Position numbers and translations under genes: made by a program | Notes under the pieces: generated by a model | What the model saw: the letters and a program-made list of their open reading frames with translations, nothing else | Told to the model about the DNA's origin: nothing | The model's database searches: none | Origin: a virus | Lineage: Duplodnaviria; Heunggongvirae; Uroviricota; Caudoviricetes | DNA length: 64,000 nt | IMG/VR virus record: IMGVR_UViG_3300021166_000052 | Coordinates: 197,424-261,423 of that record | Direction: 5' to 3' (one strand) | Part shown: piece after piece, positions 781 through 63,778 of the stretch | How the letters are laid out: each line of letters begins with the position of its first letter | Position numbering within the stretch: the first letter of the stretch is position 1

Positions 781-866
781 GCCGTTGTGGTGGAACAGGA
801 AATACACGTTGGGTTTAGACCCCAATCCTTAAATGGATGCTAGTTCGATTCTAGTCAGCGGCACCA
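781..866 (+). tRNA. tRNA-Leu (anticodon UAG, class II with long variable arm)
   Basis: Hand-folded cloverleaf. Acceptor gccgttg/cagcggc with one G-U pair. Anticodon stem ttggg/cccaa, loop tttagac giving anticodon UAG. Long variable arm, T-arm gctag-ttcgatt-ctagt, discriminator A and encoded CCA. Confidence 0.8.
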
Positions 867-18275: not shown

Positions 18276-18309
18276 TATAATAAAATAAGAAATAAATAGG
18301 AGATCAAAC

Positions 18310-19776
18310 ATGTCATTAGATACAACAATTAAAGGATCGACAACTGGAAATGGTGCAGAAGTTGATTCTGTTCATAGATTAAAAGTAAACTTAGCAACCG
18401 GTGATGTACCAGCGGAAGTGGGCGGGGTACGCAATTTTTCCGAAGTAGATCCCGGTACACGAACAGGCTCTCCTTTATTACGATCAAATGAAGTTAGTAT
18501 GGATTATCGAGCTAGAGTTGGAACTGATACTGTTCTATTTAGTGATATCTTTAATGCTGGTGCCCAAAATATTAGTTTATATAAATGTGCATTCACCACA
18601 ATGACATTAACTCAATCTGCTGGATTTTTGAATATAAATGCAGCGGGAACATCTACAGTATCTGGTAACTATGCACAATTACAAACATAGAGATATTTTC
18701 CTTTGATTGGAACATCGCCACTCGCTGTAGAATTTGTAATAATGGTTGATAGATATCCAGTTGCAAATGAAACATTTTTATGTGGTTTGGGCGTAGCGAA
18801 TGCTGCAAATGAACCAATTGATGGTGTGTAGTTTGAATATACTGATGCTGGATTGAAGGGTTGTCAAAAATATAATAGTGGCGTTACTGATAAAGTACTA
18901 TTAATGAATGCTAATGAATTAACTTTTAATACTACTAAAAAATTTGTATTAGTTGTTAGTTATGATAAAATAGAATTTTAGATCAATGATATTTTATATG
19001 GTACATTAAATAGAGATGCTGCAACTGGTATACCGTTTATTACTGGGGCATTACCATGGTTTTGTACTAAATATAATAATGCTGTAATTGGAACATCTCC
19101 AAATATGAAAGTAATGATTGCTAATGTAAATATTACTTTAATGGATATTTCCTCTAATATGACATAGAGTGGCCAGATGGCCAGTGCTGGTCTTGTTATG
19201 CAGCAGATGAATGGTGGTACTGCTGGTTCCCCACAAGTCCAATGGGCTAATACTGCATTACCTACAGCAGCAGCAGCAACAAATACTACAGCGGCATTGG
19301 GGGCATTTTTAGGAGGTATTTTCCAAATGAACGCTCCTGCAACATCCGCAACTGATATTATTATAGCTAGTTATTTAAATCCAGTCGGTGGCGTTGCACA
19401 GACTCCACGAACAATTAAATTAAGAGGAATTAAAGTAGATTGTGTTAATGCAGTTGTTGCTGTTGCCACAACAGCTACTACATTTGCAGTAGCTGTAGCA
19501 TAGGGTGGAACAACTTTAACATTAGCAGCCACTGAATCTGCAAGTTTCGCAACTGCAACTGTCAAAGCTCGTAGAATACAACCAATTGGTGTAATAACAT
19601 TCCCGATTGCATCACCGGTAGGATATGCAGCATCGCCAATTCAGTTCGATTTTGAAGCACCACTTCTTATAAGTCCGGGTGAGTATGTTCAAATAATAGC
19701 AAAACCACTAATTGGAACAGCGACATCAACTGAAGTATTTCAATGGATTATATCACCAAATTTGTATTGTGAATAA
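18310..19776 (+). CDS. large structural protein (5 in-frame TAG)
   Basis: Fragments 18310..18690 and 19177..19503 are in the same frame. Continuous to TAA 19774-19776. Ala/Thr-rich. Confidence 0.5.
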
Positions 19777-20896: not shown

Positions 20897-21448
20897 ATGA
20901 ACATAAACATCGGATCTGGTTATAAAAAATATAAAGATTACATAAACTTAGATGCTGATTTCAATTGTAATCCTGATATTTTATTTGATTTAGAAAATGA
21001 CATCTTCCCATTTGAAGACAGTTCTATTGATAAAGTAATAGCACATCATATTTTAGAACATATTGGAGATGGATATTTTCATGTTTTAAAAGAATTGTAT
21101 AGAATATGTAAACATGGAGCAATTATCGATATCCGCGCCCCACATCATAATCATGAAGTATTCCATAATGATCCAACCCATAAAAGACCCATCACAGTTG
21201 AAGGTATGCGTCTTTTTTCAAAAAAATATAATAAATATGAAATTGATAGAGGGGGATCTTCTTCTACACTCGGTATTATTTATAATATAGATTTTGAAAT
21301 TGTTGCATTTGATTATGTATATGATTCGTTTTATAATGAAATATTTAAAACAAACACCCAAACTCAAAATATTAGGTTATGTAGAGAGTTTATAAACACT
21401 ACATTAGAAACCCATATTATTATTACACCAATTAAGGACGTTATATAA
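20897..21448 (+). CDS. class I SAM-dependent methyltransferase
   Basis: N-terminal IGSG..Y.....N.D motif and overall Methyltransf_11-like pattern. No TAG. Confidence 0.55.
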   Translation: MNINIGSGYKKYKDYINLDADFNCNPDILFDLENDIFPFEDSSIDKVIAHHILEHIGDGYFHVLKELYRICKHGAIIDIRAPHHNHEVFHNDPTHKRPITVEGMRLFSKKYNKYEIDRGGSSSTLGIIYNIDFEIVAFDYVYDSFYNEIFKTNTQTQNIRLCREFINTTLETHIIITPIKDVI

Positions 21449-22788: not shown

Positions 22789-23574
22789 ATGAAAACTTTT
22801 TATTTTTTAGCGGGGTTGCCTCGATCTGGGTCAACTGTATTGGCCTCAATTTTAAATCAAAATCCGGGTATATATGTGACACCCACAAGCCCAATGTTAG
22901 ATTTATTGATAGCTAATCAAAATGCTTGGTATGATGCCCCATCGGTAAAAGCAAATCCTTTTCCAGAACAATTGACAAATATTACAAGGGCAATGATTGC
23001 TGCATCATGGCAACACCGACCCGAAAATATTATAATTGATAAAAATAGAGGATGGATGAAAAATATTGAAGCGTCTGAAATATTATTTAATAAAAAAGTT
23101 AAGATGGTTGTCACTACCAGAGATTTACCTAGTATAATGGCATCGTGGTTACGATTGATAAAAGATAACACTGACTGTTATTTTATAAGAATGCTAAAAG
23201 GTAAACATCTTAAAATTACAGATGATAGTATATTATCAGAAATGTGGTTTAATATGGTAAAAGATTGTATGGAAGGTTTAAAAAATGTTAAATTAATTGC
23301 ATCTGATAGGATACTCTTAATTGATTATGATAATTTTGTAAATAATCCATATGATATATTAAATAATATAACTACATTTTTAGAATTACCTATTTATAAT
23401 TATGACATTAATAATATTATAAATGATACTCATGATGATGATCTTACTGCGTGGGGTTTAGATGGTATGCACACAATACGGCCAATTTTACAAAAACAAT
23501 CAAATGATCCACGAATGTTATTAGGTGATCATTTATATAATAGATTTATTCATATAGAAAAACAATACAATTAA
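22789..23574 (+). CDS. sulfotransferase-family protein
   Basis: N-terminal GLPRSGSTVL matches the PAPS 5'-phosphosulfate-binding loop (PKSGTT-like) of sulfotransferases. Confidence 0.5.
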   Translation: MKTFYFLAGLPRSGSTVLASILNQNPGIYVTPTSPMLDLLIANQNAWYDAPSVKANPFPEQLTNITRAMIAASWQHRPENIIIDKNRGWMKNIEASEILFNKKVKMVVTTRDLPSIMASWLRLIKDNTDCYFIRMLKGKHLKITDDSILSEMWFNMVKDCMEGLKNVKLIASDRILLIDYDNFVNNPYDILNNITTFLELPIYNYDINNIINDTHDDDLTAWGLDGMHTIRPILQKQSNDPRMLLGDHLYNRFIHIEKQYN

Positions 23575-26236: not shown

Positions 26237-27322
26237 ATGCTGAAAGTACAAAGCTATATTTTAGAAAAAGGTATCGAGTCTTTGACCACTGAGTTTGGAA
26301 TCAGTGTCAGAAAGTACGAAGAATTTGGAATTATGACACTTAATTATTCCCAAATTGATTCACCTAAACATGACGATATTGTAAAAGAGTGCCGTGCATT
26401 AATTTTAGAATTGGATGCACCTTATACTGTCGTTTCGAGAACTTATGATCGGTTTTTTAATTACGGGGAATGTCCCCTATCAGATCAGTTCAATGTAACA
26501 GATTATGTATTCTGGGAAAAACTTGACGGAAGTATTATTCCGGTATATAATCATTCAGGCGCATGGTACGCCGCAACACGTAAATTGGCTTTTGCCGAAG
26601 GAGAAAATTCACAGGGTTTTTGTTTCAACGATATGGTTAGAAATACCATTGATTTCAATGTGTTTGATGCCATTGACTCTGATTATACTGTAATTTTTGA
26701 ATTTGTATCTCCTAAAAATCGTATAGTAAAACGATACCTAGAGGATGAGGCATATCTTACCGGTGTTCGGAATAAAAGAACCGGTGAGGAACTTAATGAT
26801 CGTGAACTTATTGACTTCGCTGCGAAATATGGATTTAAAATCCCTAAATCGTACAAGTTCAAAACTCTCGATGATGCATTGGCAAGTTTGAAAGATTTTG
26901 ATCCTTTTGATGAAGGGTTTGTATGTGTCAATTATGATAATATGCACCGCATCAAAATTAAAAATCCATCATATGTAGCAATTGCTCACTTGAGGGACAA
27001 CGGTGTGATTTCTCCAAAACGAATCGCGTTGTTAGTTCTTGAACAGGATCATGAAGAATATTTAGCACATTTCAGTGAAGATGCACAATTTTTCCAACCA
27101 TTTATTGATGCCTATGAAGTAATGAGAGCGGATATTAATGATTGTGTTGAAAAGTACATGGGAATTGAAAATCAAAAAGAATTTGCGCTGTCAATTGCTG
27201 ACATCCCCGCAAAAAGTATTTTGTTTCAGATGCGAAAGGGTTTTTCTTTCGGGGAAGTCTTGAAAAAGGTTACATCTGAAGGTAAGCTAAATCTTCTTAA
27301 TAATTACATTAAGGATGAATAA
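26237..27322 (+). CDS. ATP-dependent RNA ligase, T4 Rnl1-like
   Basis: Nucleotidyltransferase motif I EKLDGS (KxDG), motif IV EGFV and motif V KIKIKN. About 360 aa like Rnl1. Confidence 0.6.
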   Translation: MLKVQSYILEKGIESLTTEFGISVRKYEEFGIMTLNYSQIDSPKHDDIVKECRALILELDAPYTVVSRTYDRFFNYGECPLSDQFNVTDYVFWEKLDGSIIPVYNHSGAWYAATRKLAFAEGENSQGFCFNDMVRNTIDFNVFDAIDSDYTVIFEFVSPKNRIVKRYLEDEAYLTGVRNKRTGEELNDRELIDFAAKYGFKIPKSYKFKTLDDALASLKDFDPFDEGFVCVNYDNMHRIKIKNPSYVAIAHLRDNGVISPKRIALLVLEQDHEEYLAHFSEDAQFFQPFIDAYEVMRADINDCVEKYMGIENQKEFALSIADIPAKSILFQMRKGFSFGEVLKKVTSEGKLNLLNNYIKDE

Positions 27323-38057: not shown

Positions 38058-38567
38058 ATGAATAAAGCTGATTTTCAACGATTACCTATAGGTTATAAAT
38101 ATTGTATGGATTGTTTTGGATTTACACCCCATACTAAAATAAATCAAAATGGTAACGATGTTTTTATATGTGATGTTTGTACTAATGAAATTGTTTGGTA
38201 CAATAATCCATGTGATTTATGTGGATATATTTTTGGAACTGAAGAAATATATGAACCCGATTATCACGAAGAAATTATTCATGGGGAAGGGTGCCATCTT
38301 AATACTAATCTTTTTGATTATACATTGCGTAGTTTTGTTGATAGTTTATCATATGAAGATCGGTTTAAATTATCTAATAAAATTAGATATGAAGAATCCA
38401 TTGAATGTGGTTGTAAATCGGTTGTAATCTTTCATAATAATCACAGAGTTGCATATCGGTCATGGTCAGTTTATTCGATGGATTGCATGAATGCAACGGA
38501 GTGGGAAGTTACAATGAAATGTCCTATTTGCGGTGAGTTATCAATATTTAGTGATGGTAGTTGTTAA
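38058..38567 (+). CDS. Cys-rich (multi zinc-ribbon) protein
   Basis: Multiple CxxC pairs. Confidence 0.4.
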   Translation: MNKADFQRLPIGYKYCMDCFGFTPHTKINQNGNDVFICDVCTNEIVWYNNPCDLCGYIFGTEEIYEPDYHEEIIHGEGCHLNTNLFDYTLRSFVDSLSYEDRFKLSNKIRYEESIECGCKSVVIFHNNHRVAYRSWSVYSMDCMNATEWEVTMKCPICGELSIFSDGSC

Positions 38568-38620
38568 ATATCAACAAAAAAATAAAGGTAAAACAATTGA
38601 AAAAAATTATAATTTAGACA

Positions 38621-39055
38621 TTGGGTTTGTTGGGATTATGTGTTAATGCAAACGCCACAATATCAACTAATACTCAATGTGGTTATGTATGTAATGTCGA
38701 AACAACCTATCAAGAAATCAGAACACTTGTTTATAAAAAAGTTATACATAATGATGATAAATCATTTGAGGATATGATTAACTCTCTACCACCCCCATCA
38801 GCGGGGCCGGGAAGTAAATTTCTTCAAAATAACATACCCAAACATAATGAATTACATGATTGTAAAAATTATCAAGATTGGGATAAATTATCACAAGAAA
38901 TAGCTAGTGGTGTTGACAACGGTTATAAAATGATTAATAATAAACTATTCACTAATTCTGGGAAAAGATATTTAAGGTGTAATGATCCTGATAATGTATT
39001 TTCAAAATATATTCAAAAATATCCCGATCTAGTCGATAAACGACCAGAAAAGTAG
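38621..39055 (+). CDS. hypothetical protein
   Basis: 144-aa ORF. Confidence 0.35.
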   Translation: MGLLGLCVNANATISTNTQCGYVCNVETTYQEIRTLVYKKVIHNDDKSFEDMINSLPPPSAGPGSKFLQNNIPKHNELHDCKNYQDWDKLSQEIASGVDNGYKMINNKLFTNSGKRYLRCNDPDNVFSKYIQKYPDLVDKRPEK

Positions 39056-39261
39056 GAAGAGTTTATACCAATATTACAAATAAGTTGGGTTGCTATTGAA
39101 AAGTAGGTATGTTATTATATATGTACACCACGCGATCATCCTTCCCATTGTGTTCCTCCTCCAACCCAACCTGTACCAGAGGGATCTACTATGATACTTT
39201 TTGGAATCGGTATATTGGGTTTGCTTGGTATATATAAATCTAAAAAATAATAGAGTATAAA

Positions 39262-39726
39262 ATGAATGAAATAACTGGTAATATTATAGATTTGGCCGAA
39301 CAAGGGCATTTTAATGCTATAATTCATGGTTGTAATTGTTTTGGAAATATGGGCGCTGGCCTCGCTAAAGAAATAAAACAACGATACCACTGTGCATATA
39401 AAGTGGATTATAGAACAATTAAGGGCGACAAATCTAAGTTGGGTACATATTCTTCAGTTTTAACAACGTCTAATGTCAACCCCGATTATAAATTTTATAT
39501 AATTAATGCATATACCCAATTCAGATATGGTGGTAGAACTATCAATGCAGACTATAGGGCCATCCGTAAGGTTATGAGGGCCGTGGCTGAAGATTTTAAA
39601 GAATGTGTACTAGGTATCCCATTGATTGGTGCTGGCCTCGCTGGGGGCGATTGGAGCCTAATTAAGGGTATTATAGAAGAAGAGTTGGTAAATAATAATT
39701 ATACTATTGTACATTTTAAAAAATAA
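39262..39726 (+). CDS. macro-domain protein (ADP-ribose binding/processing)
   Basis: FNAIIHGCNCFGNMGAGLAKEI and later GIPLIGAGLAGG resemble macro-domain Gly-rich loops. Confidence 0.5.
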   Translation: MNEITGNIIDLAEQGHFNAIIHGCNCFGNMGAGLAKEIKQRYHCAYKVDYRTIKGDKSKLGTYSSVLTTSNVNPDYKFYIINAYTQFRYGGRTINADYRAIRKVMRAVAEDFKECVLGIPLIGAGLAGGDWSLIKGIIEEELVNNNYTIVHFKK

Positions 39727-39728
39727 TC

Positions 39729-40256
39729 ATGAATGATAAAAAAATTACATTCAATGCAATTGATTTTGAAGCAAGTACGGGTCTTCGAACATCAGCATGT
39801 GCGGTTGCTATAGTTCGAGTTGAACAGGCTGAAATAAAAGAAGTATGGAGTACTTTAATTAAACCACCTAATAATTACTATTCACAAATGTGCATTGATG
39901 TGCATGGGTTGACACCTCAATGTACTATCAATGCACAGCCTTTTCATAAAATTTATCCAGAAATTATCAAACGTATTGATGGAATGCCTATTGTGGCCCA
40001 TAACGCTCGATATGACAAAAGTGTATTTGATGCATGTAGAAGTGCTATGTTTGCGTCTGATACATTAAATATGACCGAAAAGTGGTATTGTACATATAAA
40101 TTATATAAATCAATCCGAGAAGATAAATCTGAAGGATTGAAATTAAATAATTTATGTGATAAGTATGGAATCTCTCTTAATCATCATGATGCAACATCAG
40201 ATGCACTTGCATGTGCCCATCTATTTATTCATTATCTAAGAAATCATATCAAATGA
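39729..40256 (+). CDS. DnaQ-like (DEDDh) 3'-5' exonuclease
   Basis: Exo I DFEAS, Exo II HNARYD and Exo III HHDATSDA. Confidence 0.65.
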   Translation: MNDKKITFNAIDFEASTGLRTSACAVAIVRVEQAEIKEVWSTLIKPPNNYYSQMCIDVHGLTPQCTINAQPFHKIYPEIIKRIDGMPIVAHNARYDKSVFDACRSAMFASDTLNMTEKWYCTYKLYKSIREDKSEGLKLNNLCDKYGISLNHHDATSDALACAHLFIHYLRNHIK

Positions 40257-41030: not shown

Positions 41031-41954
41031 ATGGTAGATTTAAATAAAATTGATTTATTGGATAAAAAAAATAATAATATAAAATTATCACCTGCTCAAA
41101 TTAAAAAAATTTATGATTCATTTGTAACGGATAATCCTATTTTGATTAATATGACGATTGCAAAAAATAATGGTATGGTAAAATATTACACGGGAAAATT
41201 GTGCAAACAGGGTCATATTACGTGTCGATATACTTCAAATCGTAGATGTGTAAAATGTGATTCTAATAATCCCGTCCTAACACAATACAAACCTATAGTA
41301 GATACAAAACATATTATATTAGATCGAATATCACAACTAAAAAAAACAAAAAAACCTAACAAAATTATAGAATTTAAAAATTATATTATTATAATCGCTA
41401 AAAGTAAATCAAAAAATCCTCATTTAATTAAAGTAGATAAAGATGATTATTATGGACTGTTACAATATTATTCATGGCATATAACTGCCCATGGGTATGC
41501 ACAAACCTCCAGTATTAGTCCAACTGGTAATTGTATTAATATCAAGATGCATCAAATGGTTTTGTTAACAAGGGGAATTGATCACCGAGATTTTAATAAA
41601 TTGAATAATTGTAAATCTAATTTACGTCCAGCTAATGCTATATTAAATAATATAAACCATCAAATTGTTGGCACATATAGAGGTGCATCCTTAACTAAAG
41701 CTGGTACATATAAGGCTTATATTGGATTCTTAGGTAAAAAATTTAGTATTGGCACATTTCCTAAAAAAATAATGGCGGCAAATGCATATGATATTATTCA
41801 TAGTTATATACATGGACCAGATACGGTTCTAAATGTGAACTCTTTTGAAAATTTTGAAGAAGAACTTAATCAATTAACACAACAGGAAGTTGATTTAATT
41901 TATACAAAAACTAATAATTTTATTAAAAATAAACTTTCCCAATTAGTAGGATGA
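41031..41954 (+). CDS. HNH homing endonuclease with AP2 DNA-binding domain
   Basis: HNH core WHITAHGYA...IDHRDFNKLNNCKSNLR. AP2-like GTYRGASLTKAGTYKAYIGFLGKKFSIGTF. Confidence 0.65.
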   Translation: MVDLNKIDLLDKKNNNIKLSPAQIKKIYDSFVTDNPILINMTIAKNNGMVKYYTGKLCKQGHITCRYTSNRRCVKCDSNNPVLTQYKPIVDTKHIILDRISQLKKTKKPNKIIEFKNYIIIIAKSKSKNPHLIKVDKDDYYGLLQYYSWHITAHGYAQTSSISPTGNCINIKMHQMVLLTRGIDHRDFNKLNNCKSNLRPANAILNNINHQIVGTYRGASLTKAGTYKAYIGFLGKKFSIGTFPKKIMAANAYDIIHSYIHGPDTVLNVNSFENFEEELNQLTQQEVDLIYTKTNNFIKNKLSQLVG

Positions 41955-42907
41955 TGTATATGAAATATGAAATGTATACTAATAAAGATGGGTCTATATC
42001 TAAATATGTACATAATGATGGATCTGAAACATCTATTAAAACATGGCCCGAAGGAGTAGAAACATGCGGTGGCTCTGGTAGAAATAAGTTTAATGTATTT
42101 GCGTCATGTAGTGTTGGATGTGCAATCAATTGTGAATTTTGCTTCTTAACAAGTAAAAAGTTTCCTTATAAATTTCTCGATTGCATTGAAATTGCTCAAA
42201 ACGTTGTAACTGCAATTAAAAGTGAATTGATTAGACGACCAGAATTAAAAGATATTCCATTTAATTTAAGCTGGATGGGAATGGGCGACGGTTGGCCAAT
42301 TTTAGATCATATTACTAAAGCAACGTATTTTATTATGAAAGAAATTGCGCCACTTGTATCATCTATTGAAGGAGTTGATATTGCAACGACATTACCAAGC
42401 ATTAGATATAATGATATAAATTTTTTGGATGCAATTGATAGTACATTGCGTAAAACTGGTAAATTAACACCCAAACCAGATACCAGAACAAATGTTAGAA
42501 TTTTTTATAGTTTACATAGTATGTTTAATAATATGAGAACCAAACTTATTCCACATACAATTAATGTTAATTGCGCGTTACCTTATTTAGAAGAAATTTC
42601 TAAACATTATAATGTAATATATCATTATTTATTATTAAATAATTTTAATGATTTTGGGGATTATATTACTGAGCTTGTTAGTTATTTTCATAAGAGAGAT
42701 TCCCAATTACGAATTTTACGTTATAATACATGCCCAAATTCAATATTTACTGAATCTGATAATTTTAACAATGTAATTGATATTTTAAATTATAATCTTA
42801 AAGATAAAGTTAAAATTCAATTATCACCGGGTAGCGAAATATCGGCGGCGTGTGGTATGTTTCTAATGAAAGAATCTTATAATTATCAAGGAACGTTAAA
42901 TGTCTGA
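41951..42907 (+). CDS. radical SAM enzyme (Cx3CxFC, RlmN/Cfr-like core)
   Basis: SCSVGCAINCEFCFLTS matches the CxxxCxFC(S/A)T pattern. Confidence 0.55.
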   Translation: MMYMKYEMYTNKDGSISKYVHNDGSETSIKTWPEGVETCGGSGRNKFNVFASCSVGCAINCEFCFLTSKKFPYKFLDCIEIAQNVVTAIKSELIRRPELKDIPFNLSWMGMGDGWPILDHITKATYFIMKEIAPLVSSIEGVDIATTLPSIRYNDINFLDAIDSTLRKTGKLTPKPDTRTNVRIFYSLHSMFNNMRTKLIPHTINVNCALPYLEEISKHYNVIYHYLLLNNFNDFGDYITELVSYFHKRDSQLRILRYNTCPNSIFTESDNFNNVIDILNYNLKDKVKIQLSPGSEISAACGMFLMKESYNYQGTLNV

Positions 42908-43085
42908 TTTAATTGATGATGATGATATATTAGATCCATTCGATGTAGCCTTTAATGATTGGTATAATAGTGAAGAAACGCAGAGAAGGTTCCATTGTGG
43001 ACATTACGATGACCGCCAAATGATAATGGCGGGGGCGTACTGGGCCAAAGCCTTTTTGAACAAAAATAAAACGTTATTAACGTAA
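42900..43085 (+). CDS. small acidic protein
   Basis: 61-aa ORF overlapping the upstream stop. Confidence 0.35.
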   Translation: MSDLIDDDDILDPFDVAFNDWYNSEETQRRFHCGHYDDRQMIMAGAYWAKAFLNKNKTLLT

Positions 43086-43093
43086 TATAATTA

Positions 43094-43152
43094 TTGACAA
43101 CAAAGCCACCATTTAGTATTAAGTATATATAAACTTAACTAATGGTGGCTTT
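43094..43152 (+). promoter_or_regulatory. TTGACA-17-TATTAA promoter plus 12-bp inverted repeat (aaagccaccatt ... aatggtggcttt) covering the first ATG of the next gene
   Basis: -35 at 43094-43099. Inverted-repeat arms at 43103-43114 and 43141-43152. The second arm contains ATG 43142 and is followed by TTTT. Confidence 0.35.
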
Positions 43153-43966
43153 TATGTTAAATGAAAAATGTAATCGTACTTTTGCTAACGGTATCGTATA
43201 CTTAATGGAAACCGAGGATGGTTATCCCATTGAAGTGACCGATACATTTTTACCATATTATACCAAAGATGCAGTTGGTCCCCACCAAAATAAACTTTCA
43301 TCCACGGATTTAGGAAGCAGGAATGAGCGGTGGATGGTGGGTGTTTCCACAATGTCCGGTTGTCCCGTAAGATGTAAATTTTGTGCAACTGGTAAATTAA
43401 ATAAGGTTCGCAATCTTACTTGGCAGGAGATTTGTGATCAAGTCCTTTTTGTTATTTATAAGAATCGGGACAGTGAAGGAAATGTAATTTTCAATCCCGT
43501 TGAAGCGAAAGAATTTAAGATTAACTATACTCGAATGGGCGAACCCTTTTTGAACATTGAAAATGTTCGCAAAGCCATTGAGTGGTTGGATGATAGGTTT
43601 CCCGCTATAAGAATTCATCATTATGTTTCAACAATTGGTATTACGGGCGCTGATTATTCATGGATTAAAGATAATGTAACATTACAATTTTCAGTGCATT
43701 CATTTACTGAATCATATCGTAACTGGTTAATCCCATATAAAAATAAAATTTCACTGGAAGAAATGGGAAAAGTTCGAACTAGTAGTAATCTTAAAACAAC
43801 TATTAATTTAACTTTAACTAGACCTGAAGATTTTGATATCGTTGCATTAAAAAACTATTTTAATAAAGAGCATTTTTTTATTAAATTGAGTCCAATTAAT
43901 ACAAATACCATCTCAGAAAAAAATAATATTGTAGATGGTGTTATTCATACGGAGAATATTAAATGA
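43142..43966 (+). CDS. radical SAM enzyme, RlmN/Cfr-family-like
   Basis: GCPVRCKFCATGKLNKVRNLTWQEI closely parallels RlmN [25 protein letters not shown]. True start may be ATG 43154. Confidence 0.6.
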   Translation: MVAFMLNEKCNRTFANGIVYLMETEDGYPIEVTDTFLPYYTKDAVGPHQNKLSSTDLGSRNERWMVGVSTMSGCPVRCKFCATGKLNKVRNLTWQEICDQVLFVIYKNRDSEGNVIFNPVEAKEFKINYTRMGEPFLNIENVRKAIEWLDDRFPAIRIHHYVSTIGITGADYSWIKDNVTLQFSVHSFTESYRNWLIPYKNKISLEEMGKVRTSSNLKTTINLTLTRPEDFDIVALKNYFNKEHFFIKLSPINTNTISEKNNIVDGVIHTENIK

Positions 43967-44641: not shown

Positions 44642-45532
44642 TTGTATAATTATATCATGAGTGATTTTATTGATAAAATAAAATTTAAAAATAGTGATTG
44701 TAGTTTAAATCAACAACCACCCCAAATTATTAATGAACGGTATGTTAATTTGTATGTTAAAATTGCAGACACTTGTAATGCTAACTGTCCATTTTGCGTT
44801 TATCATAATAAATTCCCCAATTTTATCTTTGATTTTAAAAAATTTAAATATATAATTAACACTTTACTACGAAATGATATTGAAATTCATAAAATTTCGT
44901 TTACAGGTGGAGAACCGACAACTAATAGAAGCGGTTTACATGATGTAATAAAATTTTTAGGACATCTTCCTATTAAACCATTTATAGTGGTCAATACCAA
45001 TGGGTTCCGTTTGGATTGGTTAACTACTTTAGATGGTATTGATAGTATAGCATTATCACGTCATGCAGTTTCTGATAATGATCAATATCAAATAATGAAC
45101 ACCAAAACGTGCCCAACTGCGAGTAATATACAATTTCATGCAAGTGATAAAATTCACTTGACATGTAACCTTATTAATGGTTATATTGATAGTGTATATA
45201 AGGTTGAGGAATATTTGGAATTCTGTCAATCTATTGGTATTTATGATGTCGGGTTCGTTAGTTTGATGAAAGTAAATCACTATTGCGAACAACATCACTT
45301 GGATTTTGATGATATTAAAATTGAAACATCCGGGAGGGTAGCATGTAACAGAGAATGGAATTGCACCGATATATGCAAATGTAAAAATTATTTATATTTA
45401 CCCACCAAAGGCACCAGATTAGTGAAGTTCTATTCACGATATCGATGTAAGGATAATGTTGACATGGGTAGCACATTGGTATATGATGGAACTTCACTAA
45501 GAACAAATTTTTCTTCAGACGTTTTAATATGA
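44642..45532 (+). CDS. radical SAM enzyme with Cys-rich C-terminal (SPASM/twitch-like) extension
   Basis: CNANCPFC near the N-terminus. C-terminal CNREWNCTDICKCKNY. Confidence 0.55.
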   Translation: MYNYIMSDFIDKIKFKNSDCSLNQQPPQIINERYVNLYVKIADTCNANCPFCVYHNKFPNFIFDFKKFKYIINTLLRNDIEIHKISFTGGEPTTNRSGLHDVIKFLGHLPIKPFIVVNTNGFRLDWLTTLDGIDSIALSRHAVSDNDQYQIMNTKTCPTASNIQFHASDKIHLTCNLINGYIDSVYKVEEYLEFCQSIGIYDVGFVSLMKVNHYCEQHHLDFDDIKIETSGRVACNREWNCTDICKCKNYLYLPTKGTRLVKFYSRYRCKDNVDMGSTLVYDGTSLRTNFSSDVLI

Positions 45533-48020: not shown

Positions 48021-48257
48021 ATGGGTGGTATCATGGCATTTATAAAAATTGAATTGGATCGATGTGTTGATATTACTAGAAATATTAAATGCCCGTATGT
48101 CACTGAAAAATTGACAAAAGGTTATGGTTATGCAGTTGATTATATGTGTAGATTAAATGATAATAAAATTGTATCGGGTTATGTTGAATGGGATAGAGAT
48201 GTAAACCCCGTTCCAGATTGGTGCCCATTGTTAATTAAGGATAATATTAATGACTGA
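48021..48257 (+). CDS. hypothetical protein
   Basis: 78-aa ORF. Confidence 0.4.
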   Translation: MGGIMAFIKIELDRCVDITRNIKCPYVTEKLTKGYGYAVDYMCRLNDNKIVSGYVEWDRDVNPVPDWCPLLIKDNIND

Positions 48258-49269
48258 TTTTAAAATAACTTACGAGCGAGACATTGAACATTGTACTGTC
48301 TCACCTTATATTAAATTTGTGACTATATCAGATGTATATAATGCAATCAATTCTGATATGTTAGATTGTGTAAAATTTGATGAAATAGGGTGGCAAGCTG
48401 TGTCAGCTAGGGGTACACGAAAGGTTGGTGATCGTGTATTATTTATCCCAGCCGAGTCAGTATTACCATTCGAGTTGGGTGAGTTACTTGATGTGACAAA
48501 ATATCTTTCTAAGGGAAGAGTTCGAGTCACATCGTTACGTGGCAACCGTTCAGAGGGTATTATTGTTGAAGAGGATGTTATTGGTCCTTATATTCCATAT
48601 ATTATGAAATGGGAAGATTTACCATCTATTTCAATGTGTGGTCAGCAACTAGCAGCGGCTGAAATAAGCCCATATATACATAGATTTTATAAAATGCCCA
48701 ACATTTTAAATGAACCAAAGACATTTGATGTGGGAGAAACTATACATTATAGTGAGAAAATTCATGGAACTAATTGGAGAGTTGGTATTTTACCACATCC
48801 TGTTACAGAAGAGTTAATGTTATATACGGGTAGTCATGATGTGGTATTGCAATTAACCGGTGAGAATGTATATGTCAGAGCCGCTACTGCTGTACAAGAA
48901 AATTTACCAGAAGGAATATTATTTTTTGGTGAAATTTTTGGCAGGGGTATTCAACATTTAAATTATGGCACTGTATTTGGGTATAGATTTTTTGCAGCTA
49001 CCAGAAGAGGTGAATATTTACCAATTGATGAATTTACTCAAATTTGTAAATTACATAATTTACCATATGTAGAGTTGAGTAAAATTATATTCACAGGTGA
49101 CATTGAACCAATTCGTCAATTATCAGAGGGCCAATCTGAATATGCAGACCATATCAAAGAAGGTATTGTTATGGTTTCTGATAAATACCCCGAACGGATG
49201 GCAAAATGTATCAGTTTTGTCTATTTGGAAAATAAGAATGGAAAACGAAAACGAACTGAACGACATTAA
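48250..49269 (+). CDS. ATP-dependent RNA ligase, T4 Rnl2-like
   Basis: Motif I EKIHGTN identical to T4 Rnl2. Motif III FFGEIFG, motif IV EGIVMV and motif V K..K. Confidence 0.7.
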   Translation: MTDFKITYERDIEHCTVSPYIKFVTISDVYNAINSDMLDCVKFDEIGWQAVSARGTRKVGDRVLFIPAESVLPFELGELLDVTKYLSKGRVRVTSLRGNRSEGIIVEEDVIGPYIPYIMKWEDLPSISMCGQQLAAAEISPYIHRFYKMPNILNEPKTFDVGETIHYSEKIHGTNWRVGILPHPVTEELMLYTGSHDVVLQLTGENVYVRAATAVQENLPEGILFFGEIFGRGIQHLNYGTVFGYRFFAATRRGEYLPIDEFTQICKLHNLPYVELSKIIFTGDIEPIRQLSEGQSEYADHIKEGIVMVSDKYPERMAKCISFVYLENKNGKRKRTERH

Positions 49270-50943: not shown

Positions 50944-51014
50944 CCGCTGATATAATTAATATCATATAACAACGTATATACGGAGTTAATTAAAATTAAA
51001 ATAGGTAATAATTT

Positions 51015-51752
51015 ATGCAAACCATTAAATACCGATAGACCCCCGATACACCCGATTTTAGAGATTATTCATATTCAATTAAATCAGTAACAATTCCCGA
51101 TAGAGTAGATTTACGATCATTATGTTCTCCCATTGAAGATCAATCATCATTGGGTAGTTGTACGGGCCAAGCTATCGTCGGCGCATTAGAAATTTTAGAA
51201 AATAAAAATAAATCTAATTTTGTTGATTTATCAAGATTGTTTGTATATTACAACGAACGAATGTTGGAACGGACCATTTTGATAGACGCTGGTGCAACAC
51301 TTCGAAGTGGTATTAAAACCATGGCAATTTATGGTGTTTGTAATGAAACGCTATAGCCGTATGATATTTTAAAATTTAAGCGCAAACCTACCACCAAATG
51401 TTATAAAGACGCTACACAAAGAAAAATTACATCATATTATCGTTTAAATACTTTAAATGATAAATTAAATTGTTTAGCATCTGGATACCCATTTGTATTT
51501 GGGTTTATGGTGTATGATTCGTTTGAAACTGAAGAAGTTACATCGACCGGTTATATGAGTATGCCTAATATTACCGATAAAGCATTGGGGGGCCATGCGG
51601 TTTGCGCGGTTGGATATGATAAATTAAAAAAATTATTTATTATAAGAAATTCATAGGGTAAAAACTGGGGCGACTGTGGCTATTTCTATATGCCATTTGA
51701 TTATGTCACAAATAATAATTTATCGGATGATTATTAGCAAATTGTAAAATGA
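51015..51752 (+). CDS. papain-family (C1) cysteine peptidase (4 in-frame TAG)
   Basis: Codon-checked frame 0 from ATG 51015 to TGA 51750-51752. VDLRS / IEDQSSLGSCTGQAIVGALE matches VDWR...QGSCGSCWAF, the catalytic Cys region. GGHAVCAVGYD matches the catalytic His. IIRNS(TAG)GKNWGDCGY matches IKNSWGxxWGxxGY. TAG codons at 51036, 51354, 51654 and 51735. Confidence 0.7.
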
Positions 51753-51832: not shown

Positions 51833-52918
51833 ATGAAAATAGTTATAACTGGTGGTATTGGATCGGGTAAATCTACAATTGCTAAATTTGTTAGAGATAA
51901 TCTATTACCATCATTTGATTTTATTAGTGTTGATGACATTGTTGCAAATATTTATTCATTGGAAGACATTCGTGATAAATTGATATCAACTTTTAACACA
52001 TGTGATAAAAAAACTATCAGTAAATTGGTATTTAATGATTCTATATTATTAAATAAACTCTATAATATTTTGAATCCTACTATATTTCATCAACTTCAAA
52101 GTTTTATTTCACTATCCAATAACATTATTATTGAATTTCCTTTATATTTTCAATTTGGTGATTCTTTTAAAGATGACATTGATTATGTATTACATGTCAA
52201 ATGTAATAATACTGCTCGTAAACAGAGAGTTATATCACGTGATAATATAACAGAAGATATGTTCAATAAAATTGATGCATGTCAATGGTATAAAACCGAA
52301 ACAACTGATAATATCATACCAATTTATAACGATGATATTAATACCGCTTATAATCATGTAATATTAGCTATCAATGCTATCAAGAAAAAAATAAAATATA
52401 ATAAAAAAGGTATAGTATCAGGATCATTCGATCCTATTACACATGGACATCTTCATATTATTAAAACTGCGATTACTATTGTTGATCAAGTTTATGTAGT
52501 GGTCGGACGAAATTACGAAAAAAAACATTACTTTGATATATGGGAACGGATCAATCTAGTACGACAATCAATTGACGAACACTTTACAGCAATTGAAAAG
52601 GAGAAAATTGTATTTGATATTCTCGAAGAAAATGAATTACTTGTTACATTTGCTAAAACCAATGACATAGGTTTTATTTTTAGAGGACTACGTGATTTTA
52701 TCGATTTGGGTTATGAAACTAAATTAAATTTGGTTCAAAAAAAGATTGCACCGACGATTGAAACGGTTTATCTTTTTACCCCTAGAGATAAAATTGAAAT
52801 CAGTAGTTCTATGATTAAAAGCAATTTAAGTTTACATGAATGGGAACTGGTTGTAAAAGATTATATACCAACTTGTGTTTTCAATGCATTAAAGGATAAA
52901 AGAAATCATGGTAAATAA
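51833..52918 (+). CDS. bifunctional P-loop kinase (dephospho-CoA kinase CoaE-like) / nucleotidyltransferase (PPAT CoaD-like, HxGH family)
   Basis: N-terminal KIVITGGIGSGKSTIA is the CoaE signature. C-terminal GIVSGSFDPITHGHLHIIK is the PPAT/NMNAT (T/H)xGH motif. Confidence 0.55.
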   Translation: MKIVITGGIGSGKSTIAKFVRDNLLPSFDFISVDDIVANIYSLEDIRDKLISTFNTCDKKTISKLVFNDSILLNKLYNILNPTIFHQLQSFISLSNNIIIEFPLYFQFGDSFKDDIDYVLHVKCNNTARKQRVISRDNITEDMFNKIDACQWYKTETTDNIIPIYNDDINTAYNHVILAINAIKKKIKYNKKGIVSGSFDPITHGHLHIIKTAITIVDQVYVVVGRNYEKKHYFDIWERINLVRQSIDEHFTAIEKEKIVFDILEENELLVTFAKTNDIGFIFRGLRDFIDLGYETKLNLVQKKIAPTIETVYLFTPRDKIEISSSMIKSNLSLHEWELVVKDYIPTCVFNALKDKRNHGK

Positions 52919-59294: not shown

Positions 59295-59927
59295 ATGAAG
59301 TACTTTAAATATCCAAGAACGCCACATCTACCGTTTTCATTAGGAGCAACTGATGATGATAAAATGTTGTCATCAGTTGCTCATTTTGAGGGGAAAACAG
59401 TTGTAATTACTGAAAAACTAGATGGTGAAAATACAACAATAGCGTATAATAAAATACACGCTAGGTCACTGGATTCAAGTGATCATGTATCTCGTCATTG
59501 GGTAAAAGCGGCATTTGGTTGGGTATCTAAATGTATCCCATCTGATTATAAAATTTGTGGCGAAAATGTATTTGCAGAACATTCCATTCCATATGTTAAT
59601 TTAGAAAGTTATTTTTATGGATTTTCGGTATGGAATAAATTTAAATGTTTATCATGGGATGATACATTAGCATTTTTTAATCAATATAATATTATTTCTG
59701 TTCCTATTCTTTATGTGGGTATATGGGATGAATCTATATGTAAAAATTTAATTAAGAAAAACACAGAAAAGGGTTTAATGGAAGGTTTGGTAGTTAGAAC
59801 AATTGATGAAATTCATTTAAATGAATTTTCTATGAACTTCGCCAAATGGGTTCGAAAGGACCATGTTACAACTGATGAACATTGGATGAATCGTCCAGTT
59901 ATTAAAAATAAACTCAAGGAATGTTAA
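59295..59927 (+). CDS. third RNA ligase-family nucleotidyltransferase
   Basis: Motif I TEKLDGEN (KxDG), motif III GENVFAEH, motif IV EGLVVRT and motif V K.VRK. N-terminal KYPRTPHLP. Confidence 0.55.
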   Translation: MKYFKYPRTPHLPFSLGATDDDKMLSSVAHFEGKTVVITEKLDGENTTIAYNKIHARSLDSSDHVSRHWVKAAFGWVSKCIPSDYKICGENVFAEHSIPYVNLESYFYGFSVWNKFKCLSWDDTLAFFNQYNIISVPILYVGIWDESICKNLIKKNTEKGLMEGLVVRTIDEIHLNEFSMNFAKWVRKDHVTTDEHWMNRPVIKNKLKEC

Positions 59928-59930
59928 CTA

Positions 59931-60095
59931 ATGAAAGAATCAATTAATTTAACTATAGAAGAGAAACATTTAGTTGTTGATTTGGTTTATAAGTTAACAA
60001 CAGTAGATGTTACTAAAGTTATAATTGATGAAAATGATAAACATATGTTGAGAAACGTTCTACTGAAGGTTGTTAATACAATCCATGAAAACTAA
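59931..60095 (+). CDS. 54-aa hypothetical protein
   Basis: Short ORF not in the track. Overlaps the start of the next gene. Confidence 0.25.
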   Translation: MKESINLTIEEKHLVVDLVYKLTTVDVTKVIIDENDKHMLRNVLLKVVNTIHEN

Positions 60096-60822
60096 TAACG
60101 AAGCGACTGACAAAGATGTACTTGATCCAAGCTATCCTCTTATGATTAAATTAAAAGAGCGGTGTCCGGGTACATATTCACATTCTAAAAATGTGGCAGA
60201 TATACTAGAAGCTCTATCAATGGAACTTCAACTGGATAGTAAAAATTTAAAAATTGCTGGATTTTATCATGATATCGGGAAAACTCGTTGTCCAGAAATG
60301 TTTTCAGAAAACCAACCAGAAACAGAAAATATTCATGATAATCTTGATCCTCATATATCATATTTATTAATTACAGGACATGTTGCAAATACGACGCAGA
60401 TGTTGTATGATGATCCTAATATTGATGATAAAGTAGTACAGTGGTGTTCACAGCATCATGGTAGTTCATTGGCCGGTTATTTCTTTCAAAAAAGTGGAAG
60501 TGATAATGAAGATGAATACCGTTATAAAACACGTACACCACAGTCACTAGAAGCCGCCCTGTTAATGATTTGTGATCACCTTGAAGCTAGGTTGCGGTCA
60601 GAACGAAAGAGCCGTAAAATCACAACTAAGGATCAAGTTGAACAACTAGTTGAAACCGTACTTGATAGTTTAATGAATGATGATCAATTGGATGAAGTAT
60701 CATTACCCCGGTTGAAAATTCTTCGGCAAATTAAAAGAATACTAAAAAATGAATTGTATAGTAAATTTGAAGACCATAAACGTATAGATTATGGTGAAGT
60801 TGCTGCTAATGACAAATCGTGA
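60085..60822 (+). CDS. HD-domain phosphohydrolase
   Basis: HS...VA and HDIGK motifs. Probable start at ATG 60085 (MKTNNEATDKD). Confidence 0.6.
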   Translation: MKTNNEATDKDVLDPSYPLMIKLKERCPGTYSHSKNVADILEALSMELQLDSKNLKIAGFYHDIGKTRCPEMFSENQPETENIHDNLDPHISYLLITGHVANTTQMLYDDPNIDDKVVQWCSQHHGSSLAGYFFQKSGSDNEDEYRYKTRTPQSLEAALLMICDHLEARLRSERKSRKITTKDQVEQLVETVLDSLMNDDQLDEVSLPRLKILRQIKRILKNELYSKFEDHKRIDYGEVAANDKS

Positions 60823-62154: not shown

Positions 62155-62242
62155 GGTGGGTTGGCGGAGTCTGGTCTATCGCGCTTGTTTGCTAAACAAG
62201 TGAACGCAAGTTCCACTAGTTCGAATCTAGTACCCATCGCCA
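62155..62242 (+). tRNA. tRNA-Ser (anticodon GCU, class II)
   Basis: Acceptor ggtgggt/acccatc. Anticodon stem cttgt/acaag with loop ttgctaa gives GCU. Variable-arm hairpin gaac-gcaa-gttc. T-arm actag-ttcgaat-ctagt. Discriminator G and encoded CCA. Confidence 0.75.
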
Positions 62243-62255
62243 TTGAATAAAAAAT

Positions 62256-62324
62256 GCCTTCACCGGGGGAACCGGCTCAGTGACTACGAATCATTCATGG
62301 AACGTTCGACTCGTTCTGGAGGCT
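62256..62324 (+). tRNA. atypical tRNA-like element, possibly tRNA-Arg (anticodon ACG), non-canonical D-arm, no encoded CCA
   Basis: Acceptor gccttca/tggaggc. Anticodon stem agtga/tcatt with loop ctacgaa gives ACG. 4-nt variable loop. T-arm gaacg-ttcgact-cgttc. D region ccgggggaaccggct does not fold canonically. Confidence 0.4.
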
Positions 62325-62335
62325 CGATTTTAATA

Positions 62336-62364
62336 TTGACATATTTAGTAGTATTTAGTATATT
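62336..62364 (+). promoter_or_regulatory. sigma70-like promoter TTGACA-17-TATATT
   Basis: -35 at 62336-62341 and -10 at 62359-62364. AAGGAG RBS before ATG 62399. Confidence 0.4.
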
Positions 62365-62398
62365 CATAGAACGAACATTAAATTAAGGAGATATTATA

Positions 62399-63448
62399 AT
62401 GTTTATTTCTACTAATAAGTTTGGTACTGCTAATATTTATGAAGAGTCTGATATATTAAATAAAAAAATATATATTTATAACTGTGCTTGTTTAACAATT
62501 CATACCGAAACTTTGGGATGGGCTAATAAACATAAGAATTGCATTGTTAATAATCCGGTTGACGCTGATGTTATCATTGTATTGGGATGTCAAGTAACGG
62601 ACTTAGCCATTCATAATGATATTCAAACCCTCCTCGCTTTTCAATTTAAATATGGTTGTGAAGATAAACTTATATTGTTTGGTGGTTGTATCGGCCAACG
62701 ATTTGATATTTTTCCAACTGTTTTTAATCGCATCGATTTATTATATTCAAATTATCAACCAGTTACTGATGATTCATTAATAACGTGGCAACATCCATTC
62801 TGGATAAAACAATCAGAAACTAATTCATTTTTACGAACTGATAAAAAAGATTTCAAATATATTAGAGTTGGAAAAGGTTGTCATGGTAGATGTCAATATT
62901 GTACCATTCGTATTACTCGTAAAGATCCGGTTACATTAGATTTAAATAAATTACTTCCTCAGTTCGAAGAGTGTGCAGGGTCTAATAAAATAATCATACC
63001 GGTTGCTGACACGCTTACAATTCCTCAAATTGAACACCTATATGGAATTGCTATTCAATATAAAATAAAATTTGCATTAAGGAATATAGAACCTAGTAAT
63101 GCAGTTGCTACTAGTGATACCTTATTAAAATTTTCAGAAAGTGGACTACTTGATACAATTCATATACCAATTCAATCAACAAATAAGGATTCATTACGCC
63201 AAATGAACCGAAGTATTAATGATACGTTTGAATCAATTGAATTGATTAAAAATATTAAATCAAATGGGGTATATACTGCAACTAATGTAATTATTAACTA
63301 TAATGATCAATCAAGTGGATATAATACCATTAAAGAAATTTTTGATCATGTTGCATGGAACCCCTATTGGAATGGGAAATGGGATATCGTTACCGCCGCT
63401 AGACGGATGACCCAATATATCCCATTTTATCAAATTTCAATTAACTAA
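62399..63448 (+). CDS. radical SAM methylthiotransferase-like (MiaB/RimO-family core, no TRAM domain)
   Basis: N-terminal MTTase-like Cys triad region (YNCAC, VLGCQVTD). Radical SAM CHGRCQYC. Confidence 0.5.
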   Translation: MFISTNKFGTANIYEESDILNKKIYIYNCACLTIHTETLGWANKHKNCIVNNPVDADVIIVLGCQVTDLAIHNDIQTLLAFQFKYGCEDKLILFGGCIGQRFDIFPTVFNRIDLLYSNYQPVTDDSLITWQHPFWIKQSETNSFLRTDKKDFKYIRVGKGCHGRCQYCTIRITRKDPVTLDLNKLLPQFEECAGSNKIIIPVADTLTIPQIEHLYGIAIQYKIKFALRNIEPSNAVATSDTLLKFSESGLLDTIHIPIQSTNKDSLRQMNRSINDTFESIELIKNIKSNGVYTATNVIINYNDQSSGYNTIKEIFDHVAWNPYWNGKWDIVTAARRMTQYIPFYQISIN

Positions 63449-63778
63449 TTGGTGATTTATATGAAAAATAATGATATACACAATGATTATGATGATAAAA
63501 TTATTCGTGATTTTCTATCACAAGAATATGAATCAAATTATAAAAACTGTGATCAAATTGGTAATATTGAATATTTACAAAATCAAATTGATAAATTAAC
63601 TCGACAACTTGTATATGCTAAAAAATCTCAAGCTGCATTAGAATTGATTCATAGTCGTGGGTGGGAAATATTCGATTGTTCTGATGAAATTATTGATTAC
63701 ACTTCTAGTAATTGGTTCCCTTTTGTTGGGACTATTGATGAATGGCAGCAATTTAAAAAAAATCTAATTGAAGATTGA
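63449..63778 (+). CDS. hypothetical protein
   Basis: 109-aa ORF. Confidence 0.4.
   Translation: MVIYMKNNDIHNDYDDKIIRDFLSQEYESNYKNCDQIGNIEYLQNQIDKLTRQLVYAKKSQAALELIHSRGWEIFDCSDEIIDYTSSNWFPFVGTIDEWQQFKKNLIED

Follow-up and report, generated by a model that had tools for sequence, protein, structure and literature searches.

A TRAM-less family of methylthiotransferase-like radical-SAM proteins, encoded by a phage that reads TAG as tryptophan and associated with NAD+ operons

A 64,000-nucleotide stretch of phage DNA (IMG/VR record IMGVR_UViG_3300021166_000052, positions 197,424 to 261,423), referred to here as the window, carries near its 3' end a gene for a radical S-adenosylmethionine (radical-SAM) protein that resembles methylthiotransferases (MTTases). 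This MTTase-like protein belongs to a discrete family without a TRAM domain, and in genome assemblies the family gene is found mostly inside operons for the salvage and synthesis of nicotinamide adenine dinucleotide (NAD+), an association that is previously unreported. We put the probability that the substrate or role of the enzyme is tied to NAD+ metabolism, at a pyridine or adenine nucleotide rather than at tRNA position 37, at roughly 45%. An earlier note on this DNA had read the gene as MiaB-like and proposed that its product boosts a UAG-reading tRNA-Trp; nothing was found that ties the enzyme to a suppressor tRNA, and the family occurs mainly in NAD+ operons.

The protein matches Pfam Radical_SAM (PF04055) above the gathering score over residues 156–302, with an E-value of 2.2e-12, and matches Pfam UPF0004 at 5.6e-5 and 23.5 bits, below the gathering score of 27. 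Forty-six homologues are listed for the protein, and the alignment used here (A1) contains 27 sequences. Three N-terminal cysteines are invariant in this alignment and, in a profile alignment, fall in register with the three that bind the N-terminal cluster in MiaB. A second triad forms the radical-SAM motif (Table 1). The six cysteines together are predicted to be enough for two [4Fe-4S] clusters. When the family profile was compared with known structures, it matched MiaB (Protein Data Bank code 7MJV) and RimO (4JC0) equally, with an E-value of 1e-11 and an alignment that extends from the N-terminal domain across the radical-SAM core. The AlphaFold 2 (AF2) model of the protein has a pLDDT of 90 and a pTM of 0.89, and its top Foldseek matches are RimO 4JC0 and MiaB 7MJW, with a TMq of about 0.63, followed by B12-dependent radical-SAM enzymes. 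The product of this open reading frame (ORF) thus has the methylthiotransferase fold. In the model the protein ends about 45 residues past the radical-SAM core, in a beta-alpha-beta-alpha segment.

Classification below the level of the fold gives a different picture from the one in the earlier note. The protein scores 62.5 bits with the generic MiaB/RimO model of NCBIfam (TIGR00089, cutoff 251), 45.9 bits with RimO (TIGR01125, cutoff 357), 40.7 bits with MtaB (cutoff 357), and 34.2 bits with MiaB (TIGR01574, cutoff 355.3), so that MiaB lies below both of the other two. The MtaB and e-MtaB models (TIGR01579 and TIGR01578) give 32–41 bits against cutoffs of 315–357, and the protein is equidistant from RimO, MtaB, and MiaB. 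UPF0004 matches 24 of the 27 family members, whereas a TRAM domain (PF01938) is found in none of the 27 at E<=0.01. TRAM is the third of the three defining domains of MTTases, and RimO binds S12 through it (PMC2952846). The family has lost this substrate-clamp domain and has instead a short acidic alpha/beta C terminus with a WNPYxDG motif, which sits where classical MTTases have TRAM. By these measures the protein is not MiaB, MtaB, or RimO, but a member of a discrete TRAM-less family. The MTTase-like part of the earlier assignment therefore stands, with two cysteine triads and MiaB or RimO as the best sequence and fold matches. The MiaB part does not, an outcome that the earlier note had itself named as counting against its proposal.

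The relation to each of the three known classes can be described more closely. The family shares with MiaB (structures 7MJV–7MJZ) a UPF0004-type N-terminal domain with three cluster cysteines, the CxxxCxxC core, and the overall fold, but it has 349 residues in the window protein compared with about 440–475, is only 12–14% identical in the Foldseek structural alignment, is acidic rather than basic, and resides in NAD+ operons. RimO, the methylthiotransferase of S12 Asp-88, is the best fold match and gives the best equivalog score, and it has the same two-cluster architecture; the window family differs from it in the missing TRAM domain, in the low score, and in the lack of any ribosomal context. 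The MtaB and e-MtaB enzymes (CDKAL1-type, writers of ms2t6A37) likewise combine the MTTase N-terminal domain with a radical-SAM core, yet the window family is without their TRAM domain, and a giant-virus MtaB-like protein falls outside it.

An exhaustive search with hidden Markov models returned about 75 clusters (clustering level 50% identity) that reach E<=1e-30, separated by a score gap from classical MTTases of 400–440 residues. Full-length members have about 330–390 residues, except for one of 475 residues (P0021) that carries a C-terminal WDGH domain, and the search showed no family member fused with an NAD enzyme or an RNA enzyme. The median isoelectric point is 5.9 for the family and 9.1 for the classical-length MTTase matches of the same search. 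The acidity speaks weakly against an RNA substrate; the comparison is crude and its control set unannotated, which in turn limits what it lends to a role in NAD+ metabolism. Three tblastn queries against cultured and GenBank phages gave one weak match of 24% identity and no family member. The BFVD set of viral structures contains no member either, its only MTTase being a Megaviridae MtaB-like protein of 489 residues, which is the top viral fold match of the window protein. Literature searches on phage MTTases found nothing relevant.

The genomic context of the family was determined from a non-redundant set of 97 metagenomic or viral loci, together with 47 from GTDB genomes. With the C-terminal motif as a search pattern, 135 metagenomic and 51 genomic relatives were recovered, and the relatives returned by the metagenome scan were at most 42% identical. 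NAD gene families were counted within 5 kb of the gene wherever each of the two flanks was at least 2 kb long. At least two such families are present at 34 of 38 GTDB genome loci and at least four at 32 of 38, and the corresponding numbers for the metagenomic and viral loci are 16 and 12 of 51. The recurrent neighbors, identified with Pfam and NCBIfam, are NadE, NMNAT, NMNAT-Nudix, PncA, PncB/NAPRT-like proteins, phosphoribosyl pyrophosphate synthetase (Prs), PncC (CinA), NrtR, NAD kinase (NadK), PnuC, and NadR. They lie on the same strand with tight spacing, and the NadE and Prs neighbors clear the curated cutoffs. On a 200-kb contig of a metagenome-assembled genome of an uncultured Bacilli member (L102), the order on one strand is PncA-PncB-NUDIX-NadE(Gln)-PyrH-Prs-NMNAT-(MTTase-like)-PncC-x-NrtR-NadK, with the MTTase-like gene at 7986–9017 of L102. 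The genome loci come from assemblies labeled Bacilli, Tenericutes, Erysipelotrichaceae, Muribaculaceae, and Woesearchaeota, on contigs of up to 1.49 Mb. An adjacent PP-loop gene was considered as LarE, which would have linked sulfur chemistry with nicotinate nucleotide, and was ruled out: it is a true NadE above the curated cutoff, with a LarE score of 29 bits.

Distance clustering shows that NAD-linked and unlinked members are interleaved, with the same invariant residues in all, so that it is simplest to assume one biochemical activity for the whole family. The setting is reminiscent of the phage systems NARP1, NARP2, and NARP3 and of NrtR-regulated bacterial NAD operons, since family members stand among NAMPT/NAPRT, NMNAT-Nudix, Prs-like, PnuC, NadR, NadE, and NrtR genes. 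The paper on NARP3 (PMC13464706) and a survey of viral NAD+/ADP-ribose systems (PMC9503650) contain no radical-SAM or MiaB-like component in NAD modules, unlike the loci described here. The window phage has NAD+/ADP-ribose genes of its own, with a NAMPT (NAMPT_N and NAPRTase domains) at 7185–8624, 54 kb from the MTTase-like gene, and, at 5956–6918, 9093–9614, and 39262–39726, two Nudix-domain proteins and one Macro-domain protein. The ORF at 5956–6918 was examined as an NMNAT-Nudix protein (NadM), but only the Nudix domain is supported, and BLASTP against a NadM-like reference was not significant. At other phage loci (L003/L004, L005, and L006), the MTTase-like gene is near Tpt1/KptA (PTS_2-RNA), NADAR, an HD_4 protein, RtcB, deoxyhypusine synthase, and arginine decarboxylase. 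Such neighbors are NAD-consuming genes of RNA repair and polyamine metabolism that share its accessory regions. ORF coverage of the ±10-kb flanks gives no reading on stop-codon recoding in the relatives, because the gene lies in early unrecoded regions where short ORFs dominate.

If the enzyme works as other MTTases do, it would cleave SAM at the CxxxCxxC cluster, the 5'-deoxyadenosyl radical would abstract a hydrogen, and the N-terminal auxiliary cluster would supply sulfur or a methylthio group to the substrate. In assemblies of uncultured Bacilli/Tenericutes, Muribaculaceae, and Woesearchaeota, the family is a conserved part of the operons for NAD+ salvage and synthesis, and it is also present in NAD+ modules of large phages. 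In the window phage and its closest relative, the gene appears to have parted from the NAD genes, and it now resides in an accessory region with tRNAs and RNA-repair genes. It is possible, though we hold this fuller account to be doubtful, that the family is an unrecognized radical-SAM component of NAD+ metabolism, whose substrate, either a nucleotide (pyridine or adenine) or an enzyme of the pathway, would undergo sulfur insertion, methylthiolation, or a related radical reaction. On this account, uncultured, genome-reduced Bacilli and DPANN archaea would have conserved the gene in their NAD operons, and large phages would have borrowed it together with anti-defense genes for NAD+ reconstitution. 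Several observations weigh against a role in NAD+ metabolism. We know of no biochemically established MTTase reaction on an NAD-pathway metabolite, and the salvage pathway encoded in the family operons has no obvious missing step. Operon membership is linkage and does not identify a substrate. The window gene itself is not beside NAD genes, several loci have RNA-repair genes (for example, Tpt1 and RtcB) as neighbors, tRNAs are about 2-fold denser within 300 bp of the family gene than further out, and the closest relatives with usable flanks, L009 (53% identity) and L008 (44%), are both tRNA-array cases.

These last points bear on the explanation closest to the earlier note, namely that the enzyme is a MiaB- or MtaB-like methylthiotransferase acting at A37 of tRNAs from the phage or its host, among them perhaps an amber-reading tRNA-Trp(CUA) whose gene lies elsewhere, and thereby improves the decoding of late genes in which TAG encodes Trp. 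The ms2i6A37 modification helps the decoding of UNN codons and amber suppression, and the reading of TAG as Trp by the window phage is real. The gene begins 74 nucleotides downstream of two tRNAs, both with A37, and this tRNA-gene order is syntenic in L009. A tRNA lies within 300 bp of the family gene at seven of the 97 loci (L008, L050, L056, L067, L080, L089, and L101), the window being the eighth case; in L008, L080, and L089 the gene is inside a large tRNA array, and L080 has a tRNA(CUA) 2 kb upstream of the homologue. Such tRNA-array loci make up only about 8–10% of the total, however, and the 1 kb around the gene is free of tRNAs at about 90% of loci, while the 34 of 38 genome-assembly loci in NAD operons have none nearby. 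Adjacency is weak evidence in any case, since tRNA arrays and NAD modules occupy the same accessory regions of large phages. Neither tRNA next to the window gene decodes a UNN codon, and no MiaA (the i6A37 writer, with an IPPT domain) was found among about 50 scanned window ORFs, although the host could supply it. Together with the missing TRAM domain, scores far under the MiaB and MtaB cutoffs, and the acidity of the family, this leaves modification of A37 without positive evidence beyond adjacency, and we consider it unlikely.

A RimO-like protein methylthiotransferase, acting on an aspartate or other residue of ribosomal protein S12 or on another protein, would agree with RimO being the top Foldseek match and the best NCBIfam equivalog and being level with MiaB in the profile search, and an acidic enzyme would suit a basic protein substrate. 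The score is nevertheless far under the RimO cutoff, the TRAM domain that RimO uses for S12 binding is absent, and no locus examined has a ribosomal-protein context, which makes this role very improbable. It is also conceivable that the neighbors have no functional meaning and that this is a mobile accessory gene that entered hypervariable regions and operons by chance or co-transfer and whose product acts on something else, for instance a DNA base or some other small molecule. Among well-flanked metagenomic and viral loci, about two-thirds indeed have neither NAD genes nor tRNAs nearby, and their neighbors are mostly small hypothetical ORFs. Against this, tight same-strand linkage to the same NAD set recurs in phage contigs and in assemblies labeled as Bacilli, Bacteroidota (Muribaculaceae), or DPANN archaea, a recurrence that is hard to explain without functional coupling; we regard chance placement as even less probable than modification of tRNA A37. 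A role tied to NAD+ metabolism is accordingly the reading that we favor.

The two tRNA genes upstream of the MTTase-like gene were analyzed by ARAGORN and Rfam (Table 1). The first, the tRNA-Ser(GCU) of the earlier note, is canonical and has an encoded CCA at 62240–62242. The second had been described as an atypical Arg-ACG element without CCA and with a non-canonical D arm, and this description holds for a real tRNA gene. Its acceptor stem comprises 7 bp (GCCTTCA/TGGAGGC), and its anticodon stem, AGTGA/TCATT, bears the loop CTACGAA, which gives the anticodon ACG and A37. The T arm is GAACG-TTCGACT-CGTTC, with a canonical T loop. The discriminator is T(U), followed by CGA instead of CCA, so that CCA is not encoded. 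Only 16 nucleotides separate the acceptor and anticodon stems, and they form a compact D arm of 4 bp with a 5-nucleotide loop that abuts the acceptor stem (the ARAGORN version has a 3-bp stem). Canonical bacterial tRNA-Arg(ACG), the substrate of TadA, has the same C-U-A-C-G-A-A loop with A34 and A37, an acceptor stem of likewise 7 bp, anticodon and T stems of 5 bp each, and TTCGA in the T loop; the window element differs in that its 16-nucleotide segment is this hairpin without the 8–9 linker. Default ARAGORN misses the element, and Rfam RF00005 gives no match at E<=10. At the 90% threshold ARAGORN recovers it, with just one further extra call in the entire window.

A second copy is present in L009, the contig (10.3 kb) on which the MTTase-like gene has its closest retrievable homologue. 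L009 is syntenic with the window from 59.3 to 64 kb, comprising an RNA ligase, a small ORF, tRNA-Ser(GCU) (976–1065 of L009), tRNA-Arg(ACG), the MTTase-like gene, and a 109-residue ORF. The L009 tRNA-Arg(ACG), at 3075–3146, is a default ARAGORN call with CCA encoded and aligns with the window element without gaps. The two copies do not differ anywhere in the 17-nucleotide anticodon stem-loop. Each has standard bases at all 21 pairs, five of them through compensatory changes (three in the acceptor stem, one in the D stem, and one in the T stem), which places the element above chance, and controls in shifted register collapse. The ViennaRNA minimum free energy structure is the cloverleaf for both copies, with the 4-bp D hairpin against the acceptor stem. 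An anticodon-arm pattern found no further copies in IMG/VR, and among the fetched loci only L009 has one. A decaying pseudogene or a processing signal would account for the failure of default ARAGORN and Rfam, for the non-canonical D arm, and for CGA at the CCA position of the window copy. It would not be expected to have four helices all maintained in L009 by compensatory changes, an unchanged anticodon stem-loop, a canonical T loop, and a second copy that has CCA and clears the default threshold, and such a fate is therefore improbable. The two sequences from which the element is known indicate that this tRNA, with its compact D arm, is conserved and under selection and is not a chance match.

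The earlier note had found no tRNA with a CUA anticodon in the window, and ARAGORN likewise finds none that is convincing, whether run by default, with introns permitted, or with the threshold lowered to 90%. Lowering it further to 80% gives 36 matches at noise level, three of which are "cta" calls, all inside ORFs. Besides tRNA-Ser(GCU), the only default-level tRNA call of the window is a tRNA-Leu, which ends 8 nucleotides short of the open frame of the first TAG-rich gene (874–2034 from stop to stop). Its anticodon, UAG, is the same triplet as the recoded codon, yet it reads CUN and is not a suppressor. The tRNA(CUA) of L080, at 7854–7928, belongs to an array of eight tRNAs; it has the loop CUCUAAA with A37 and discriminator U, and is unlike the tRNA-Trp(CCA) of the same locus.

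The premise of the earlier proposal, that TAG is read as Trp, is strongly confirmed by alignments. In-frame TAGs are numerous in the genes of 874–26121 and in those at 38555–39250 and 51012–51752, whereas almost all other genes have none. For the capsid-sized ORF at 18289–19776 (488 residues, five TAGs), more than 120 homologues of 60–67% identity are full-length and uninterrupted, and Trp occupies all five of the TAG columns in 109–120 of 120 homologues. Further ORFs agree: three of the four TAGs in a papain-like ORF align with Trp residues of xylellain (3OIS), including the canonical Trp of NSWG, and the TAGs of an RCC1-repeat ORF fall on the Trp of the repeat. The frequency of TGG is 0.48% in TAG-containing genes versus 1.08%, and that of TAG is 1.69%. 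Genetic code 15, a known amber recoding of phages in which TAG encodes Gln, was ruled out, as the TAGs align with Trp and not with Gln. A survey of phage recoding saw TAG to Gln and TGA to Trp as the only reassignments, from both of which TAG to Trp differs, and phrase searches of the literature for it found nothing relevant. The reassignment is notable in itself but does not connect to the MTTase-like gene, which is TAG-free and so presumably early. Two ORFs of the TAG-free region end in TAG (37412 and 44442), with a TGA 1–8 codons later; TAG in early genes may still terminate translation or be backed up by another stop.

The earlier note had also described two RlmN-like writers of m2A37 at 41951–43966. 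RlmN-like radical-SAM genes are present there, but "m2A37 writers" goes beyond the evidence. Both proteins reach 70–71 bits against the TIGR00048 cutoff, and only the first keeps the Cys-355 motif. The first aligns with RlmN from the radical-SAM motif to AACG; the column of Cys-118 holds Phe, with a Cys three residues on. Escherichia coli RlmN makes m2A37 on tRNA-Arg(ICG), and on this account the compact tRNA-Arg(ACG) is a candidate substrate.

Table 1. Features of the window discussed in the text (positions are those of the 64,000-nucleotide stretch)
Feature	Position	Strand	Evidence and remarks
tRNA-Leu, anticodon UAG, reads CUN	781..866	+	ARAGORN, Rfam
RlmN/Cfr-like radical-SAM protein with CAINCEFC and C-terminal AACGMF (equivalent of RlmN Cys-355)	41951..42907	+	NCBIfam RlmN 70 bits, cutoff 290; alignment to RlmN 4PL1
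Second RlmN/Cfr-like radical-SAM core with CxxxCxxC, without both RlmN mechanistic cysteines (E. coli C118 and C355)	43142..43966	+	
Third radical-SAM ORF in a row, unclassified	44642..45532		
Fusion of CoaE and CoaD (dephospho-CoA kinase and phosphopantetheine adenylyltransferase; final two steps of coenzyme A (CoA) synthesis)	51833..52918		Both halves above NCBIfam cutoffs
tRNA-Ser(GCU), class II, A37	62155..62242	+	ARAGORN; Rfam RF00005 51 bits, gathering score 29
Non-canonical tRNA-Arg(ACG)	62256..62324	+	ARAGORN at 90% and 80% thresholds only; L009 covariation
Sigma-70-like promoter candidate, TTGACA-17-TATATT (11/12)	62336..62364	+	Followed by AAGGAG and ATG
TRAM-less methylthiotransferase-like radical-SAM protein, 349 residues, TAG-free	62399..63448	+	Pfam, NCBIfam, profile search, AF2, Foldseek
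N-terminal auxiliary-cluster Cys triad: C31 (62489–62491), C64 in LGCQVTDL (62588–62590), C97 in GGC (62687–62689)	62489..62689	+	Invariant in 27/27 sequences
Radical-SAM motif C161-x3-C165-x2-C168 (CHGRCQYC)	62879..62902	+	C165 invariant, C161 and C168 at least 90% conserved in 27 sequences
C-terminal family motif W-N-P-Y-W-N-G (consensus WNPYFDG)	63356..63376	+	N321, P322, and Y323 invariant
ORF of 109 residues, no assigned function	63449..63778	+	No Pfam match; syntenic in L009 (4972–5280), 42% identity by tblastn

The window has a G+C content of 31.5%, and its genes are essentially all on the plus strand. The protein collection has a single record of the MTTase-like protein, on a 276,095-bp JGI contig, which implies that the window belongs to a genome of jumbo-phage size. 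Megablast of 24 kb against GenBank phages gave no match at the DNA level. The promoter candidate ahead of the MTTase-like gene is a lead only, because sigma-70-like sites are no commoner in the region than in shuffled sequences. The fusion of CoaE with a cytidylyltransferase-type domain was considered as an NAD enzyme and ruled out, being CoaE plus CoaD.

Several other observations concern the surrounding genes. Three RNA ligases (T4 Rnl1-like, DRB0094-like, and a short RNA_ligase protein), an HDIG phosphohydrolase, and an RNase T-like exonuclease are encoded at 26237–27322, 48250–49269, 59295–59927, 60070–60822, and 39729–40256; in the TAG-free region, this set looks like an RNA or tRNA repair toolkit. 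Sulfotransferase-family and methyltransferase-domain ORFs (22789–23574 and 20897–21448) are TAG-free and lie among TAG-containing genes of structural appearance. The intergenic segment 60972–61144 is 88% identical to its counterpart in L009 (226–398), whereas the flanking proteins are only 35–45% identical. It has no Rfam match. The RNAalifold consensus fold is closed by AACCATTR/YAATGGTT and contains five pairs changed on both sides, and the segment is a candidate structured RNA on the strength of these two sequences. Extension of the element through an exact 18-mer was abandoned, as the five IMG/VR matches are unrelated beyond the 18-mer.

The assignment of the family corrects an automatic annotation that is already spreading, as four homologues among the matches listed carry the JGI annotation "tRNA A37 methylthiotransferase MiaB". 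The compact D arm of the tRNA-Arg(ACG) indicates that functional-looking phage tRNAs escape default finders, which matters for searches for suppressor tRNAs in such genomes. If the link to NAD+ is functional, the family would represent an undescribed radical-SAM/Fe-S step on one of the best-mapped cofactor pathways, and an undescribed component of the phage NAD+ modules that are now studied as counter-defense.

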